A stretch of 63,205 bases of DNA, filler included. It is 8 parts of 8 records of this genome, joined end to end, with 100 filler letters (N's around TTAATTAATTAA, not from the genome) between each part and the next. Parts side by side here need not be neighbours in the genome. Positions count along the whole stretch, not along the records: positions 30,878 to 37,736 come from SRR31156797_34611; 7 more parts are not named here. One strand, 5' to 3'. The position numbers and the translations under genes were made by a program. Of this stretch, positions 10,268 to 56,657 are shown piece by piece. Below the pieces are notes generated by a model. That model did not search any database. It saw only the letters and a list, made by a program, of their open reading frames with translations, and had not been told where the DNA came from. Numbering within the stretch: position 1 is the stretch's first letter; the number at the start of each line of letters is the position of its first letter.

Positions 10268-10367
10268 NNNNNNNNNNNNNNNNNNNNNNNNNNNNNNNNN
10301 NNNNNNNNNNNTTAATTAATTAANNNNNNNNNNNNNNNNNNNNNNNNNNNNNNNNNNNNNNNNNNNN
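10268..10367. other. Artificial contig spacer (N44-TTAATTAATTAA-N44). Also at 19000-19099, 30778-30877, 37737-37836, 43425-43524, 50056-50155 and 56558-56657
   Basis: Identical 100-bp structure each time. Composition and gene content change across most spacers, and genes are cut at them. Confidence 0.98.
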
Positions 10368-18997: not shown

Positions 18998-19099
18998 TGN
19001 NNNNNNNNNNNNNNNNNNNNNNNNNNNNNNNNNNNNNNNNNNNTTAATTAATTAANNNNNNNNNNNNNNNNNNNNNNNNNNNNNNNNNNNNNNNNNNNN

Positions 19100-27846: not shown

Positions 27847-28701
27847 CTATCCCTCGCCATGATGTGGAAGAACCCGGTGCGGAATACCATGGGCAATCAG
27901 GTCTACCGGGCATTCGTAGGCCATGTCAAGCATTTCATGGGTGATCTCAGGTTCTTCGTGGTAAATTAATGTTTGATTGACACACGCCACGGATTTTATA
28001 TACCTGGATAGGACGCCCACGTCGTGGGTGATGGTTACGATGGTGGCATGCCGGTTCAGTTCTTTAAGAAAGTCGTATATATTGCTTTCGAATTGGGGAT
28101 CAACCTTGGCGGTGGGTTCATCCAGGAAAAGGATTTCCGGTTCCGTCGAAAGAGCCCGGGCGATCAATACCCGTTGCCTCTGTCCCCCCGATAATTTACC
28201 GATGGGCATTTTTCTTTTGTCCCACATGCCCACTTTTTTGAGGGCTTCTTCCGCCACGGGACGGTCCCTGTGGGTAAACCCTTTTCCCATGCGGGATCGG
28301 GCAAGACGTCCCATTAACGCCACATCCATGACGGAAATGGGAAATGTATTGTTGAAGTCCGTATTCTGGGGTACATAACCCACCCGGCGGCGCGCCCGGT
28401 GGGGTGCTTCCCCCAGTATCCGTATGGTGCCCCTATGGGGTTTCAGAATGCCCAGCAGCAGCTTGATAAGGGTTGTTTTTCCCCCTCCGTTGGGGCCGAT
28501 CATTCCCAGAAAATCCCCCTGCTTCAAGGAAAAGCTGATATCTTCCAGTATGGGGGATCTGTCATAGGAAAACCATACCCCCTCCATTTCAATGGCGGGA
28601 ACAGTTTTAAGGGTGCAGTTGTCAGGGTGCAGGTTGACTTCCGACGATGATTTTTCTGCCCCCTGTCCCCTGTCCCCTGCACCCTGTGAACGGTTACCCA
28701 A
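27847..28701 (-). CDS. znuC: Zn/Mn ABC transporter ATPase with a repeat-derived N-terminal extension
   Basis: GPNGGGKTT, LSGGQRQR, LDEPT. TTG start has AAAGGA 8 nt upstream. Confidence 0.9.
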   Translation of the reverse strand: MGNRSQGAGDRGQGAEKSSSEVNLHPDNCTLKTVPAIEMEGVWFSYDRSPILEDISFSLKQGDFLGMIGPNGGGKTTLIKLLLGILKPHRGTIRILGEAPHRARRRVGYVPQNTDFNNTFPISVMDVALMGRLARSRMGKGFTHRDRPVAEEALKKVGMWDKRKMPIGKLSGGQRQRVLIARALSTEPEILFLDEPTAKVDPQFESNIYDFLKELNRHATIVTITHDVGVLSRYIKSVACVNQTLIYHEEPEITHEMLDMAYECPVDLIAHGIPHRVLPHHGEG

Positions 28702-28756
28702 ATCTCACATCCTTTCTCTTCCTAACAGCTAAGATCTAACAGCTAACAGCTAACGG
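28602..28756. repeat. Heptamer arrays: inverted CAGGGTG-like and CCCCTGT-like arrays, plus (CTAACAG)x5
   Basis: 28602-28636 (5 units), 28653-28687 (5 units, inverted), 28722-28756 (CTAACAG CTAAGAT CTAACAG CTAACAG CTAACGG). Confidence 0.8.
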
Positions 28757-28759
28757 CTT

Positions 28760-29608
28760 TTAAGCACCCTTGATCTCCAGACTGAAATCCGCCGCCCTCG
28801 GTGAATGGGTAAGTGCCCCCACGGAGATGAAATCAACACCCGTGGATGCAATTCCTTTAATGGTATCAAGGGTGACACCCCCGGAGGCTTCCACCAGGAC
28901 CGCGCCGTTGATAAGGTCCACCGCTTCTTTCATTTCCAAGGGTGTCATGTTGTCCAGCAGGATGATGTCGGCACCTGCCCGGCAGGCTTCTTTCACTCCG
29001 GCAAGATCTTCCACCTCCACCTCCACCCGGAGCGTGTGAGCCGACCCTTTTCTGGCCTTTGAAACGGCCTTTGAAATGGACCCCACCGCCGCAATATGGT
29101 TGTCTTTGATGAGGATACCGTCAAACAGGCCGAATCGGTGATTTTTTCCGCCGCCGGTTCTGACCGCGTACTTATCGCACCACCTGAGCCCCGGCGCGGT
29201 CTTCCGGGTGTCAAGGATTGTAGCCCGGGATCCTTTGATTTCTTCCACATACCGGCGGGTGAGGGTTGCGATGCCGCTCATGCGTTGCAGAAAATTGAGA
29301 GCGGTTCTTTCTCCGGATAGAATGGCGGCGAGCCGGCCCTTGATTCGGCATACGGCGGACCCCTCGGGTACAATATCCCCGTCTTCAAAGTGCATGACAA
29401 ATGCCAGTGTGGGATCGACTTCCAAAAATGTCTGTTTAAAGACCGCCAGACCGGCCAGAATCATTTTTTCCCGGGCAATCAGGATGGCCTCCCCCGGGGT
29501 ATGGGGATCTACCACCGCCCGGGTTGTTGCATCGCCCGGTCCCATGTCTTCTTCAAGGGCACGCCTTATCATCGGTTGGATCGGCGAAAACAGGTCGCTA
29601 TCCATCAA
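28760..29608 (-). CDS. nadC: Quinolinate phosphoribosyltransferase (nicotinate-nucleotide diphosphorylase)
   Basis: ERTALN, DTRKT, NHRFGL, IKDNH, LLDN, EASGG. Confidence 0.96.
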   Translation of the reverse strand: MMDSDLFSPIQPMIRRALEEDMGPGDATTRAVVDPHTPGEAILIAREKMILAGLAVFKQTFLEVDPTLAFVMHFEDGDIVPEGSAVCRIKGRLAAILSGERTALNFLQRMSGIATLTRRYVEEIKGSRATILDTRKTAPGLRWCDKYAVRTGGGKNHRFGLFDGILIKDNHIAAVGSISKAVSKARKGSAHTLRVEVEVEDLAGVKEACRAGADIILLDNMTPLEMKEAVDLINGAVLVEASGGVTLDTIKGIASTGVDFISVGALTHSPRAADFSLEIKGA

Positions 29609-30777: not shown

Positions 30778-30877
30778 NNNNNNNNNNNNNNNNNNNNNNN
30801 NNNNNNNNNNNNNNNNNNNNNTTAATTAATTAANNNNNNNNNNNNNNNNNNNNNNNNNNNNNNNNNNNNNNNNNNNN

Positions 30878-32135
30878 GCAAATTCTTAACACCCAGTTTC
30901 TTGACTCTTGCAACATTCTCGATCTCGGTTATCTTGTATTCAATAACCTCAATCTTGTCATCAAATGTATCATAAAGTCTGGTTGCTGCTTGCTTAAGGT
31001 AGCCGCAAGCCGCGCAAGAAGCCGAATCAACGGTAAACACTTCGATCAAAGGTCTGGACAGGCTTTTGTAATCAGGTAATTCAATGTCAATATCAATCTC
31101 ATCTTTAGTGTAGTTCTCAAGCATTTGCTTGTAAGAGTCGGGATTCCGCAGAGCATCCATTACGCCAATACAATTCTCAATAGGAGTGTCATAGGGCATA
31201 TCACAACCGGGGGAGACAATAAGGTGCTCATGATCAACCGTTTCCAAGAAATCTACAATAAATTTCACATTATCTTGCTGATTGCCCAGTAACATAACTG
31301 TTGTCAGGGGAATATTGCCTCCGATCACGATATCATGTGCATCAGTGATCTTTTTTGCAGCGACCATGTCAATATTTTCATCAATAGAGATCATATCCGG
31401 GTGAGTGTGGCACATGACATCCATATTTTTAGTGGCATCGCCACATACGAACAGTGATGAAAATACATTATGATTTTTAATGTCAGCAAATAATCTATGT
31501 AAAGGCTTATGCAAGAATTGCGTGAACATATCAGGTGAGATTTGAGAAATAACGGGATCTACAACTGCAATAACGTCCATGCCGGCTTCTATATAAAGAT
31601 CACTCATTTGAATGGCTATATCGGTACAATAATCGATCAATTCCTGCACTTTTTCGGGCTCCATGTAGGTGTCCATGAATAGCTCGGAACCACGAAGGTG
31701 GGTTGCCAGAGTGAGGGGACCTGTAATAAGTCCGTAAAGAACCGTTTCCGCGCCAACTGAGGCTTTCATGCGCCTCATAACATCTAAAATGATCGGTAAT
31801 CGTCCATCATTTTTCGTAATATTATTTTCAGATATAATAAATTCTTCTGAAAGAGGATGTGAAACGACTGATGGGGGAGAGTCCACTGCCCATAATAGTT
31901 CGCAACCCAGTATTTCGGCTTCAACTTGCAGGTCAAAAATGACGGGTTGTCCGTCCGGAACATATGTTTCATGAACTTTCATGAGAGATTCGTACAATTT
32001 ATCTGCATCTTGCAGGACGTCTGTCGAGTTATAACCGCAAAGTTTGCCTGCATGAATACCGGCAAACGGAACCCACGGAACCATGTCCGCTTTTTCTCCC
32101 GACAGTACTTTAAATAGTCTCTCTTTTCCTGTCAT
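30878..32135 (-). CDS. MtaA/CmuA-like (URO-D superfamily) corrinoid-linked methyltransferase with a C-terminal thioredoxin-like CxxC domain (3' partial)
   Basis: DLQVEAEILG, GPLT, VCGD, GGNI and PGCD motifs, then EVFTVDSASCAAC. GAGGAG RBS. Confidence 0.8.
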
Positions 32136-32151
32136 GATATCTCCTCTCTGC

Positions 32152-32874
32152 TTATTTCTTGCGATGTTTTTCCAGTAGCTCTTTGGCAGTAAAAATGATG
32201 TTTTCATCTAATTCGAAGTATTTATTTAAATATTCCAGAGCTTTTTCTTCAGAATCGTATTTTTCAATATTGCCCTTGCTGCGAATTTGGACGTAATTAC
32301 CGTTGATGTATACAAATTTATCATCAGTAAAACGCGATGCAACAATGGCATTCATATAGTTGAATGATTCGACCCAACTTTTTTGGAAATCTTCGTTATT
32401 TAATGGTTCGATGTGAAATGTATAACGGGTTTTGTGCTGACCATTCGTGATAGTTTGCAATTGATATTGTCCATTCGATATCTGTTGAACGACAAAATCT
32501 ATTACACCATTCCGTTGTATCGAAACGCCTTCTTCCTTGATCTCAAGAGGGGAGTTGATAAGATACCCGGGATCTATCAGGTATCGTTTTCCATCTTGTT
32601 CAATAATGACAAAAAAATGTGGAAAAGTTCTTCTGTGGATATCAGCCTTTACAGGGTATGCCAATATGTTTTCTACTGATAGCGATTTTATTACCAAATT
32701 CACCAGCGAGAAGCAGGTCCCTCCAAAATTCAGGTCACGATGATCCGATAAAACTATCTGGCTATCTCTTGGTCTGTCTATGGAATTCATTTCAAGCCTA
32801 AGTATCTTAGAGATATTCTCGTAAGGAATATTTTCGAGTATTGAAAAGAATTGTATGTCGTTAATGTTTTTCAT
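32152..32874 (-). CDS. Arylamine N-acetyltransferase family protein
   Basis: IPYENI and a Cys-His-Asp triad (GGTCF, PHFF, LIDPG). Confidence 0.8.
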   Translation of the reverse strand: MKNINDIQFFSILENIPYENISKILRLEMNSIDRPRDSQIVLSDHRDLNFGGTCFSLVNLVIKSLSVENILAYPVKADIHRRTFPHFFVIIEQDGKRYLIDPGYLINSPLEIKEEGVSIQRNGVIDFVVQQISNGQYQLQTITNGQHKTRYTFHIEPLNNEDFQKSWVESFNYMNAIVASRFTDDKFVYINGNYVQIRSKGNIEKYDSEEKALEYLNKYFELDENIIFTAKELLEKHRKK

Positions 32875-32916
32875 CCTGTGATAATACAGAAAAAGTAAAA
32901 AATACACAATACATAA

Positions 32917-33020
32917 TTAGTTATGAGTTATAAGTGATGAGTGATGAGTGCCCCAGAATAAGTTATGAGTTATAAGTAATGAGTGATGAGTGCCCAGGAA
33001 TAAGTCATAAGTAATGAGTG
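32917..33020 (+). repeat. Left arm: 42-bp tandem units built from TDATRAG heptamers
   Basis: Units start at 32921, 32963 and 33005 (partial). Each is 4 heptamers plus a 14-bp TGCCC-containing spacer. Confidence 0.9.
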
Positions 33021-33099
33021 GAAACAGAATGTGATGCGTATCACACACAAATATTGGATGTTTAATTTTGTTGAATTATATGCTATTTTCTTTCTTAAA

Positions 33100-33477
33100 A
33101 TGGAGGACGAAGTGAAAAGAGAAGGTGCGATCTTAAGAAAGAGTTATGAGTTTGCATTAGATATTATCGAACAATACGATAAAATTCGTATCAATAAAAA
33201 AGAATTTACATTAAGCAAACAATTAGTTCGGAGTGGGACATCAATAGGTGCTAACGCTAATGAAGCACAACATGCTGAGAGCAGAGCAGATTTTATTCAC
33301 AAACTGGCCATTTCTCAGAAAGAATGTATAGAAACTGAATTTTGGTTAAACCTATTAAAAGACTCATGTTACATAAATCAGAATGAATTTGATGATCTAT
33401 TTGCTAAGGCAAATGAATTACACAAAATGATCACGTCAGCAATAATCACCTCAAAAAATATCCAAAACAAAAGATAA
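33100..33477 (+). CDS. Four-helix-bundle protein (23S rRNA intervening-sequence protein/bAvd-like family)
   Basis: KSYEFA, LSKQLVRSGTSIGAN..EA..AES.ADFIHKL.IS.KE..ET..WL.LL signature. Start at 33100 or 33112. Confidence 0.92.
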   Translation: MEDEVKREGAILRKSYEFALDIIEQYDKIRINKKEFTLSKQLVRSGTSIGANANEAQHAESRADFIHKLAISQKECIETEFWLNLLKDSCYINQNEFDDLFAKANELHKMITSAIITSKNIQNKR

Positions 33478-33486
33478 TATCATATT

Positions 33487-33579
33487 CTCATTACCGTTTT
33501 GGGCACCCATAACTTATAACTCATAACTCATCACTGAATTGAGGGTACTCATCACTCATAATTCATCACTTATAACTAA
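33487..33579 (-). repeat. Right arm: inverted copy of the heptamer/42-bp array
   Basis: Reverse complement reads TTAG TTATAAG TGATGAA TTATGAG TGATGAG TACCCTC AATTCAG TGATGAG TTATGAG TTATAAG TTATGGG TGCCCAA. Confidence 0.9.
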
Positions 33580-33625
33580 AATATTTGTTTGAAAAAAATG
33601 CTCATATTCTTAACTTATTGGCAAT

Positions 33626-34078
33626 ATGAATAAACAAATTTTGAAAGTCATTAAAAAGTACGAAGGTAAGCGTGGTTCTGCGATTCCCATATTGCAGGAA
33701 GTTCAGGAAATTGAGGGCTATATTTCCAAAGATACCATTCGGGATATCTCCGAACGAACAGGTCTACCTTCAGCGGAATTGTTTGGGATCGTAACATTCT
33801 ATTCAATGTTCCGTTTAAAGCCCCAGGGCCGGCATATTATTCGTATCTGCAAGGGAACGGCTTGTCACGTTTCGGGTGCCGATACACTCAGTTCTATGTT
33901 AAGAACACTACTTGATCTGCCGGAAGACGAAACGACAACGGAAGATGGCCGGTTTACACTTTTGGAAGTGGCGTGTCTGGGATGCTGTTCTTTGGCACCC
34001 GTGATCATGATCAATGAAGATACATACGGTAAATTGGCTTCCGATAAGCTCGAAAAAATCTTAGATAAATACGAATAA
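33626..34078 (+). CDS. NuoE/HydC-like [2Fe-2S] subunit
   Basis: VTFYSMF, CKGTAC, CLGCCSLAP. Confidence 0.93.
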   Translation: MNKQILKVIKKYEGKRGSAIPILQEVQEIEGYISKDTIRDISERTGLPSAELFGIVTFYSMFRLKPQGRHIIRICKGTACHVSGADTLSSMLRTLLDLPEDETTTEDGRFTLLEVACLGCCSLAPVIMINEDTYGKLASDKLEKILDKYE

Positions 34079-37736: not shown

Positions 37737-37836
37737 NNNNNNNNNNNNNNNNNNNNNNNNNNNNNNNNNNNNNNNNNNNNTTAATTAATTAANNNNNNNN
37801 NNNNNNNNNNNNNNNNNNNNNNNNNNNNNNNNNNNN

Positions 37837-43423: not shown

Positions 43424-43524
43424 CNNNNNNNNNNNNNNNNNNNNNNNNNNNNNNNNNNNNNNNNNNNNTTAATTAATTAANNNNNNNNNNNNNNNNNNNN
43501 NNNNNNNNNNNNNNNNNNNNNNNN

Positions 43525-50055: not shown

Positions 50056-50155
50056 NNNNNNNNNNNNNNNNNNNNNNNNNNNNNNNNNNNNNNNNNNNNT
50101 TAATTAATTAANNNNNNNNNNNNNNNNNNNNNNNNNNNNNNNNNNNNNNNNNNNN

Positions 50156-56556: not shown

Positions 56557-56657
56557 TNNNNNNNNNNNNNNNNNNNNNNNNNNNNNNNNNNNNNNNNNNN
56601 NTTAATTAATTAANNNNNNNNNNNNNNNNNNNNNNNNNNNNNNNNNNNNNNNNNNNN

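Follow-up and report, generated by a model that had tools for sequence, protein, structure and literature searches.

A recurrent gene cassette with inverted heptamer arrays connects a four-helix-bundle protein family with rRNA intervening sequences and cyanobacterial STRR repeats

The PF05635/TIGR02436 proteins form a large family (8,784 clusters at 50% identity, E ≤ 1e-3, in a full scan) whose function is, to our knowledge, known only in retroelements. Judging by the papers that cite it, the first open reading frame (ORF)-bearing intervening sequence (IVS) was reportedly described by Ralph and McClelland in 1993, and short tandemly repeated repetitive (STRR) sequences are said to have been defined by Mazel et al. 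in 1990 in filamentous cyanobacteria, as repeats only. Herein we analysed a stretch of DNA of 63,205 bases (hereafter the window), in which contigs are joined by linkers of N44 + 12 bases + N44, and we describe an element at positions 32917-33579 that resembles both: a single small gene of this family, enclosed by two arms of ~100 nt that are built from tandem 7-nt units (heptamers) and are mutually inverted.

In the searchable text of Warrier et al., the IVS of Coxiella 23S ribosomal RNA (rRNA) is a selfish element in helix 45 whose 28-bp terminal stem is cut by RNase III, and two to three tandem GACAGAT heptamers, variable in number between strains, stand immediately before its ORF start (Warrier et al. 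2016, PMC4990558). For STRR, a later paper gives repeats that are usually 7 bp long and can fold into hairpins, one example lying between hupS and hupL; it calls their function unknown and suggests transcript stability or translational coupling (PMC2670836). Other sources place 18 genes of the family in cas loci, e.g., between cmr3 and cmr2, and list among their references an XCC0516 structure paper with “five four-helix bundles” in its title (PMC3936711). They also report the family in 16S and 23S insertions of candidate phyla radiation (CPR) bacteria (bioRxiv 2024.02.27.582315), note that PF05635 resembles Avd (PMC10053308), list the family as CRISPR-linked in a figure legend (PMC10910872), or merely mention it (PMC8700078).

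At the window element, an 80-nt inverted repeat (arms 32917-32996 and 33500-33579, 503 nt apart) is 79% complementary, and local alignment of the 200-nt flanks gave a score of 83.5 over 80 nt (z = 23.9 against shuffles). The left arm opens with TTAG and continues with four TDATRAG heptamers (32921-32948), a 14-nt spacer beginning TGCCC, four more heptamers (32963-32990), a second 14-nt spacer, and two final heptamers. Read on the minus strand, the right arm repeats this build, with TTAG at 33579-33576, four heptamers at 33575-33548, a 14-nt spacer beginning TACCC at 33547-33534, four heptamers at 33533-33506, a spacer of ~12 nt beginning TGCCC, and two degenerate heptamers at 33493-33480. Tandem Repeats Finder reported periods of 7 and 42 (2.5 copies, 87% matches, score 154) in the left arm and of 7/14 in the right one. 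The double heptamer TDATRAGTDATRAG occurs nine times in the window, always within the arms (six in the left, three on the minus strand of the right), compared with 0.01 occurrences expected by shuffles, and none of 100 shuffles reached nine. The same letters can be parsed around a four-base core, A-R-T-K (R, A/G; K, T/G): the first left module (32919-32950) holds AGTT, AGTT, AGTG, AGTG, and AGTG at 7-nt spacing, the second (32961-32992) has one degenerate core, AGTA, and a partial module follows at 33003-33020. The 42-nt period reads more naturally as a 32-nt five-core module plus a 10-nt linker, repeated. Scored as core chains, the window has five cores from 32919 in the left arm and four each at 33577 and 33535 on the minus strand. 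When 32905-33590 was folded as RNA, the arms paired and the ORF was looped out (−174.6 kcal/mol, z −6.5). An earlier, sequence-only reading of this DNA had described TTAG ends, heptamers, spacers, inversion, and 7/42 periodicity, and had suggested that the arms could form a long imperfect stem with the ORF in the loop; all parts of that description hold at 32917-33579, and the fold is in line with the suggestion.

The enclosed gene had been assigned from its letters to the IVS/bAvd family of four-helix bundles, and profile searches confirm this assignment across the whole domain and above the curated cut-offs, with PF05635 (E 5.6e-27, 94.5 bits vs. a cut-off of 33.8, profile positions 5-105 of 106) and TIGR02436 (E 3e-30, 104.7 bits, cut-off 24). 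PF05635 is the sole Pfam match of the ORF. Its product has 121 aa when read from a GTG at 33112 and 125 aa from an alternative ATG at 33100; the GTG was taken as the likely start because it aligns with homologues that begin MK/MD-R/N-E/K-G-A-I-L. The protein keeps all 18 invariant columns in an alignment with 30 homologues, and it matches PDB 2RLD (E 9.6e-27), an entry with five chains. By this entry and the title of the XCC0516 paper, solved relatives are pentamers, and the window protein may assemble in the same way. In the PADLOC defence-system profiles no match was found for the gene or for the neighbouring acetyltransferase, and in a phage collection two records match the protein. Two longer proteins, P0137 (268 aa) and P0262 (435 aa), carry the family domain at the C-terminus and may be fused forms.

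Relatives of the window gene were collected by searching an alignment of its protein and the 30 homologues against species-representative genomes, which gave 601 pattern matches, 596 of them confirmed. The best 80 of these 596, at 44-62% identity, were used as a sample of loci; with plasmid copies included the set comprises 91 loci in all, and some tests were run on 81 or 73 of them. Across the 80 loci, Tandem Repeats Finder placed period-7 arrays at a density of 4.79 per kb within 150 nt of the gene vs. 0.25 per kb elsewhere, and 114 of the 135 near-gene arrays had a period of 7. An array lay within 200 nt of the gene in 66 of the 80 loci (42 two-sided, 24 one-sided). Of the 155 intergenic gaps that adjoin the gene, 67 (43%) held an array with a score of at least 40, compared with 25 (9%) of the 268 remaining gaps of these loci (odds ratio 7.4, p 2e-15). 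The arms are inverted with respect to one another as well: the upstream heptamer was the reverse complement of the downstream one, with at most one mismatch, in 35 of the 42 two-sided loci (19 exactly), compared with a mean of 7.4 and a maximum of 17 inverted matches over 2000 permutations in which arms were paired across loci. An alignment of each flank with the reverse-complemented opposite flank, which needs no repeat finder, gave z ≥ 4 in 60 of 81 loci. All six plasmid copies (Anabaena, two Nostoc, Euhalothece, Treponema, and Chlorohelix; that is, Nostocales, Chroococcales, Spirochaetota, and Chloroflexota) carry arrays. Going by record titles, the hosts belong to Bacteroidota, Cyanobacteriota, Acidobacteriota, Firmicutes, Ignavibacteria, Planctomycetota, Gammaproteobacteria, Patescibacteria, Spirochaetota, and Chloroflexota. 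The enrichment of inverted arrays around homologues, which the sequence-only reading had put forward as a check, was thus found.

The heptamers share a core. In 73 loci with phased heptamers, A was found in 67/73, A/G in 73/73, T in 68/73, and T/G in 71/73, with the three remaining positions variable, and the information content was 4.59 bits compared with 2.96 ± 0.12 for letter-shuffled heptamers. The core also has a polarity: among 43 heptamers without the palindromic AATT it pointed inward in 32 and outward in 3, and in ORF-less inverted pairs it lay on the 5′ arm in 6/6, and on the 3′ arm too in two. Counted as chains at 7-nt spacing (127 chains in the flanks of the 91 loci), arrays of three, four, five, six, seven, and more cores numbered 17, 33, 61, 5, 3, and 8, respectively. 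The distribution peaks sharply at five (61/127), which corresponds to a typical array of ~32 nt; from simple slippage one would expect a curve that declines steadily. We also considered whether a 7-nt unit with a stop codon could block ribosomes in all three frames; stops were found in 60 of 73 inward-read heptamers compared with 59.2 ± 2.7 expected from base composition, and the idea was dropped. One array (L066 2884-2949) is a perfect ATTAGGG x9.4, telomere-repeat-like, that departs from the five-unit rule.

The variable triplet appears to follow the protein. Among six loci examined in Nostoc flagelliforme CCNUN1 there are three different paralogues, and each has perfect arrays of 4.4-4.9 copies in both arms with its own triplet after the AATT core (AATTCGC, AATTCAA, and AATTCGT); a near-identical N. 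punctiforme protein shares AATTCGC with its CCNUN1 counterpart. One cell thus keeps three array types apart, a separation not to be expected if a single host factor served them all. Over 73 loci, protein identity and heptamer distance were correlated at a Spearman coefficient of −0.29, beyond all 1000 permutations (lowest −0.139), so that the co-variation proposed from the letters alone was recovered both within this genome and across the set.

Alleles with and without the unit were compared at three sites. At the first, Nostoc punctiforme pNPUN02 (L082) vs. Nostoc sp. C052 (L089), the unit, together with its arrays, stands in place of the central part of a 138-aa ORF, homology stops where the arrays end on the outside, and three other plasmids lack both gene and arrays. 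At the second, upstream of xisH, the ~590-nt unit of pNPUN01 stands opposite an unrelated stretch of ~200 nt in two relatives. At the third, the cas1-cas2 junction, the unit is present in Anabaena cylindrica and Nostoc TCL26-01, where it runs antisense to cas, and in the empty alleles of Nostoc UHCC 0870 and N. edaphicum cas1 and cas2 abut or overlap. Since the gene-less alleles have no arrays at any of the three sites, the arrays come in together with the gene. Gene and inverted five-core arrays make up a single heritable unit, which is gained or lost in one piece, has ORF-less relatives, and is in most cases situated within a host transcription unit.

Some plasmid copies have left marks on their surroundings. 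On Anabaena cylindrica pANACY.01 (L081 2528-2642) the inserted array forms the last ~80 nt of the annotated cas1 coding sequence, giving Cas1 a new lysine-rich tail, and ~40 nt of the native 3′ end, kept in empty alleles, is absent. Among plasmid copies (with L086, L085, and L097 as examples), some lie within or beside restriction-modification genes (helicase plus N-6 methylase; cytosine methyltransferase), and others adjoin TnsA or XisH/XisI.

That the window element belongs to a recurrent cassette class is far more secure than the whole model that we propose for it, namely a selfish cassette of the IVS type with a pentameric protein that reads arrays of five heptamers; for this model we would give about even odds (roughly 0.5), and we infer its steps of binding, RNA processing, and movement. 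The layout across phyla suggests that a five-subunit ring reads arrays of five repeats. The homopentamer would bind one five-core array, with one subunit per heptamer, and each paralogue would be directed to its array by the variable triplet; such a one-pentamer-per-array arrangement is in keeping with the conserved core and its polarity, with the mode at five, and with the paralogue-specific triplets. The ligand would most plausibly be a single strand, namely the 5′ arm, rich in purines, as it occurs in the transcript or in unwound DNA, both strands of which present this same arm, because a closed ring should fit a flexible strand better than a stiff 32-bp duplex. Once transcribed, the arms could base-pair to form a long stem, with the ORF looped out of the host RNA, as in the 23S rRNA IVS. 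Binding of the protein may compete with formation of this stem, and the cassette would then control its own expression, a simple autoregulatory switch to which the frequent position of the start codon within the last heptamer points. By analogy with RAYT/REPIN systems, recognition may help full and ORF-less copies to persist or spread, with the movement activity supplied from outside the window-type protein.

Much of the layout could also be read as an RNA-processing stem and nothing else, in which host RNase III or another host factor cuts the stem, the insert is removed or insulated, and the protein has no relation to the heptamers. The arms do pair in the predicted fold, and the typical arm of ~32 nt is in the range of the 28-bp Coxiella stem that RNase III cuts, as given in the searchable text of that paper (PMC4990558). 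In 64 of 75 loci the cassette gene runs in the same direction as both of its neighbours, whereas other adjacent gene pairs are on the same strand in 194 of 268 cases (72%). The neighbours are separated from it by median gaps of 34.5 and 39 nt, and the arrays run right up to their stop and start codons, frequently spanning from the stop codon of the upstream host gene to the start codon of the downstream one. They also lie close to the cassette gene itself: in 27 of 50 loci the end of the upstream array falls between −10 and +25 nt relative to the start codon, in 39 of 58 loci the first base of the downstream array falls between −25 and +10 nt relative to the stop, and the ATG and TAA often form part of the terminal heptamers; the window copy, with its divergent upstream gene and longer leader, is of a minority type. 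STRR hairpins, too, have been proposed to stabilise transcripts or couple translation, in the available part of the source (PMC2670836). However, complementarity would suffice for a stem, and it leaves the phylum-wide A-R-T-K core and its fixed polarity unexplained, as well as the sharp cut-off at five cores and the paralogue-specific triplets in a cell with one RNase III. Nor was a signature of G:U tolerance seen: mismatches between arms that are of G:U type on the sense strand numbered 66, those on the antisense strand 52, and transversions, the commonest, 180, so that an excess of G:U pairs on the sense strand, considered as a mark of an RNA stem, gave no support either way. We regard the stem-only explanation as unlikely, with the pentamer model accounting for features that it does not.

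ORF-less copies bear on a second explanation, by which heptamer hairpins of the STRR kind arise alone by slippage and the gene inserts into, or survives best in, their loops. Gene-less arrays are indeed common in the same loci, being found in the 25 of 268 other gaps noted above; 9 inverted pairs and 34 solo arrays were counted. In a metagenome-assembled genome (MAG) of Eubacterium limosum (L038 195-3160), every gap of an operon of two pilins, a prepilin peptidase, and a PilC-like gene holds a heptamer element: in this type IV pilus operon three successive gaps have an ORF-less element of ~125 nt (array, two small hairpins, inverted array), and in the fourth these arrays and hairpins recur, the gene lying between the hairpins. 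In L035 the order is adk, cassette, obg, and then an ORF-less pair of the same heptamer. In L077 complete heptamer hairpins occupy three successive gaps, with loops in both orientations, and there whole hairpins flank the gene and do not enclose it. Hidden second copies of the gene were considered as a source of the distant arrays and discarded on account of their rarity: a hidden Markov model scan for the family in the 80 loci found a second match only in L003 and L050, plus a split one in L045, which means that most distant arrays are ORF-less. The window itself holds a gene-less heptamer hairpin on another contig (28600-28760). Against this explanation stand the gene-less alleles at all three compared sites, which are also array-less, the paralogue-specific heptamers and protein/heptamer co-variation, which it would not lead one to expect, and the ORF-less copies of L038, which keep the ORF-flanking inner hairpins as deletion derivatives would. 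We therefore hold it to be improbable. The sequence-only reading had named independent scattering of the heptamers as grounds for giving up its view; arrays do occur away from the gene, but these are ORF-less hairpins of the same build and polarity. Of the four checks put forward in that reading, three were carried out on relatives and spoke for it, and its interpretation is supported in part.

Equally improbable, in our estimation, is a DNA-binding regulator or insulator that coats tandem duplex sites at both ends of the gene, in the manner of operators or iterons. The core, the polarity, and the paralogue-specific triplets would fit any sequence-specific binding, and head-to-head sites are typical of operators. 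A closed pentameric ring would, though, be a poor match for a straight 32-bp duplex, on which a 7-bp spacing should fall out of helical phase, and both the co-orientation with host transcription and the reported action of bAvd homologues on RNA in retroelements point to a single-stranded nucleic acid. Finally, low-complexity sequence that arose by chance in AT-rich DNA between genes and is functionally unrelated to the cassette gene, for which one could cite the AT-rich arms and the capacity of tandem repeats to expand by slippage, is already refuted by the motif count, the inversion test, and the gap enrichment, and by enrichment, inversion, core conservation, and length quantisation that hold across the 91 loci.

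Several observations weigh against the pentamer model. With regard to sampling, the 80 loci were all drawn from the nearest relatives of a single query, to which a handful of more distant ones (33-45% identity) were added. With regard to architecture, Tandem Repeats Finder found no array in 14 of 80 loci, 21 of 81 loci had no significant inverted repeat, some loci have one-sided arrays only, and the build itself varies, with a direct array followed by an inverted one in L076, L051, L022, and L081, and complete hairpins beside the gene on both sides, not around it, in L077. Long arrays break with the five-fold length, the longest having 41 copies (L084 1631-1918, Treponema saccharophilum pTS1), followed by 25 (L043 1-181) and ~20 (L027 2839-2991). 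With regard to mobility, the same site between the same two host genes is occupied in different Bacteroidota families (L002, L009, L012, L044, and L050), as is a second shared site (L017, L031, L047, L053, and L062), and in both sets the arms have diverged yet are still complementary; such synteny points to long vertical residence and not frequent movement. The filled and empty alleles foreseen by the sequence-only reading do exist in Nostocales plasmids, but no target duplication was found at the three sites compared in relatives, and some host sequence was lost each time. With regard to the protein, the Pfam profiles recognise no nuclease, recombinase, or polymerase domain in it, its co-variation with the heptamers is inseparable from shared descent of the whole unit, and the Coxiella IVS protein is apparently not made in vivo, according to the available text (PMC4990558). 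Lastly, the arms show no wobble bias, and nothing in their mismatches would tell selection on an RNA stem from homogenisation of the DNA.

Four Clostridia MAG loci (L046, L068, L071, and L074) are without a period-7 array and carry CATGAATTG-type palindromes, with a 14-nt period in L046; these repeats may be a variant arm type.

The cassette class is very widespread and is not described as a class in the searchable literature, and neither is the general rule behind it; ORF-bearing IVS and STRR were known already, and the element is a variant of these kinds. A prior link of the family in general to heptamer arrays, STRR, or a five-fold array length was not found there (subscription journals, database comments, and supplements lay outside the search), and neither was a link between the family and the HEPN domain. 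The statement in the sequence-only reading that it knew of no published description accordingly stands for a general one, but not for the particulars, as the Coxiella IVS heptamers and the STRR hairpins are in print. The comparative result ties together the family, the ORF-bearing rRNA IVS, and the cyanobacterial STRR, and two old questions, on ORF-bearing IVS and on STRR, become directly testable. If the model is true, it would reveal a new natural, modular nucleic-acid recognition code and explain small elements wedged into operons, including those of cas, restriction-modification, and pilus genes. Arrays can also alter neighbouring genes, as on the plasmid where one now encodes the C-terminal tail of Cas1. 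A wider generalisation can be put forward tentatively, as something possible that we do not favour over its negation: that throughout the class a pentamer ring reads exactly five 7-nt units, that the universal A-R-T-K core anchors it, that a three-base address pairs each paralogue with its arrays, that gene cassettes are autonomous and ORF-less hairpins their dependants, and that this same system would explain the ORF-bearing rRNA IVS, the cyanobacterial STRR, for which no explanation has been given since 1990, and the function of a family with thousands of clusters.

The features of the element and the linkers of the window are collected in Table 1. The element's contig (30878-37736, 6.9 kb, with an N-linker at both ends) further carries a URO-D-family gene, an N-acetyltransferase gene that is divergent from the cassette gene, and NuoE-, NuoF-, and GltD-like genes. 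The best named relatives of the NuoF-like protein are from Candidatus Marinimicrobia (85%, 82%) and Fidelibacterota (76%), and the contig looks Marinimicrobia-like on the strength of these matches. The window pieces range in GC content from 0.32 to 0.66 and may not all stem from one organism. On this 6.9-kb contig, ORF and Pfam searches found no transposase or reverse transcriptase, and an Rfam scan (E ≤ 1) found no rRNA and no other RNA family, so that the earlier statement that none of these lies nearby holds as far as the contig reaches. Within 32700-33750, a sigma-70 scan gave six promoter-like sites vs. 5.2 expected and a terminator scan gave none; the host may use other signals. The small local hairpin listed in the table might, by a loose analogy, correspond to the inner hairpins of the L038 elements. 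The URO-D-family ORF (30878-32207, listed with 461 aa) runs into the N-linker, and its URO-D domain covers residues 27-354, leaving an extra C-terminal part well beyond the domain. The gene-less hairpin at 28600-28760 lies between two minus-strand genes and consists of GGGTGCA-type units facing CTGTCCC/CTGCACC units, after which comes a CTAACAG x5.3 array; it resembles an ORF-less STRR-type element.

Table 1 Positions of the element's parts and of the linkers within the window.
Feature	Position	Strand	Remarks
Left (5′) arm	32917..33020	+	TTAG, then TDATRAG heptamers; two full modules and one partial
Small local hairpin TGTGAT-GCGT-ATCACA	33030..33045	+	Between left arm and gene; read from sequence
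GGAGG, likely ribosome-binding site	33102..33106	+	5 nt before GTG start; read from sequence
Four-helix-bundle protein gene	33112..33477	+	Stop 33475-33477; PF05635, TIGR02436, and 2RLD matches
Right (3′) arm	33480..33579	-	Left-arm build when read on minus strand
N-linkers	10268-10367, 19000-19099, 30778-30877, 37737-37836, 43425-43524, 50056-50155, 56558-56657		

Among known systems, an insertion sequence or miniature inverted-repeat transposable element does not agree with the data, there being no transposase in the window contig and no target duplication at the three sites in relatives. The diversity-generating retroelements have bAvd, of homologous fold and from a neighbouring family, which Alayyoubi et al. 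reportedly described in 2013 as a barrel of five subunits that acts with the reverse transcriptase in binding nucleic acid; the window's 6.9-kb contig holds neither a reverse transcriptase nor a template/variable repeat pair, and heptamer arrays are not reported for Avd. In TRAP-type rings each subunit takes one short repeat, the RNA is wrapped around the ring, and the number of repeats equals the number of subunits. The likeness of our model to these rings is a mechanistic analogy only, as the fold is unrelated.

The REPtron, consisting of repetitive extragenic palindromes (REP), their REPIN hairpins, and the REP-associated tyrosine transposase (RAYT), is similar in outline, with a gene flanked by inverted short repeats and ORF-less hairpins dispersed in the same genome; Nunvar (2010) and Bertels and Rainey (2011) are said to have described the RAYT gene with its inverted REP copies and the dispersed REPIN hairpins. 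RAYT, however, is a Y1 (IS200/IS605-type) transposase, whereas the window protein is a four-helix bundle of 120 aa with PF05635 as its only Pfam match, and REP are single palindromes whereas the window repeats are tandem heptamers.

STRR are intergenic, hairpin-forming 7-bp repeats, and the window arms are of just this kind; the arrays and ORF-less hairpins of Nostoc, Anabaena, and Euhalothece look like STRR themselves. In the searchable literature STRR have no link to a protein family, and their host is a filamentous cyanobacterium, whereas the window contig is Marinimicrobia-like in appearance and the build is also found in at least nine other phyla.

The rRNA IVS of Leptospira, Coxiella burnetii (S23p), and CPR bacteria differ in where they sit, in a helix of 23S or 16S rRNA, whereas the window element lies between the N-acetyltransferase and the NuoE/NuoF-like genes, and the 91 loci lie between protein-coding genes as far as their flanks read (the Rfam scan covered the window contig). 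The arms of the window element are heptamer arrays, for which the searchable literature has no report in IVS stems in general, and excision by RNase III has been shown for the rRNA copies only. These IVS, which the accessible literature regards as selfish and horizontally acquired, nevertheless encode the same protein family and hold the ORF in the loop of a terminal-inverted-repeat stem, and the window element has such a stem in its 80-nt arms, 79% complementary and with a fold z of −6.5.

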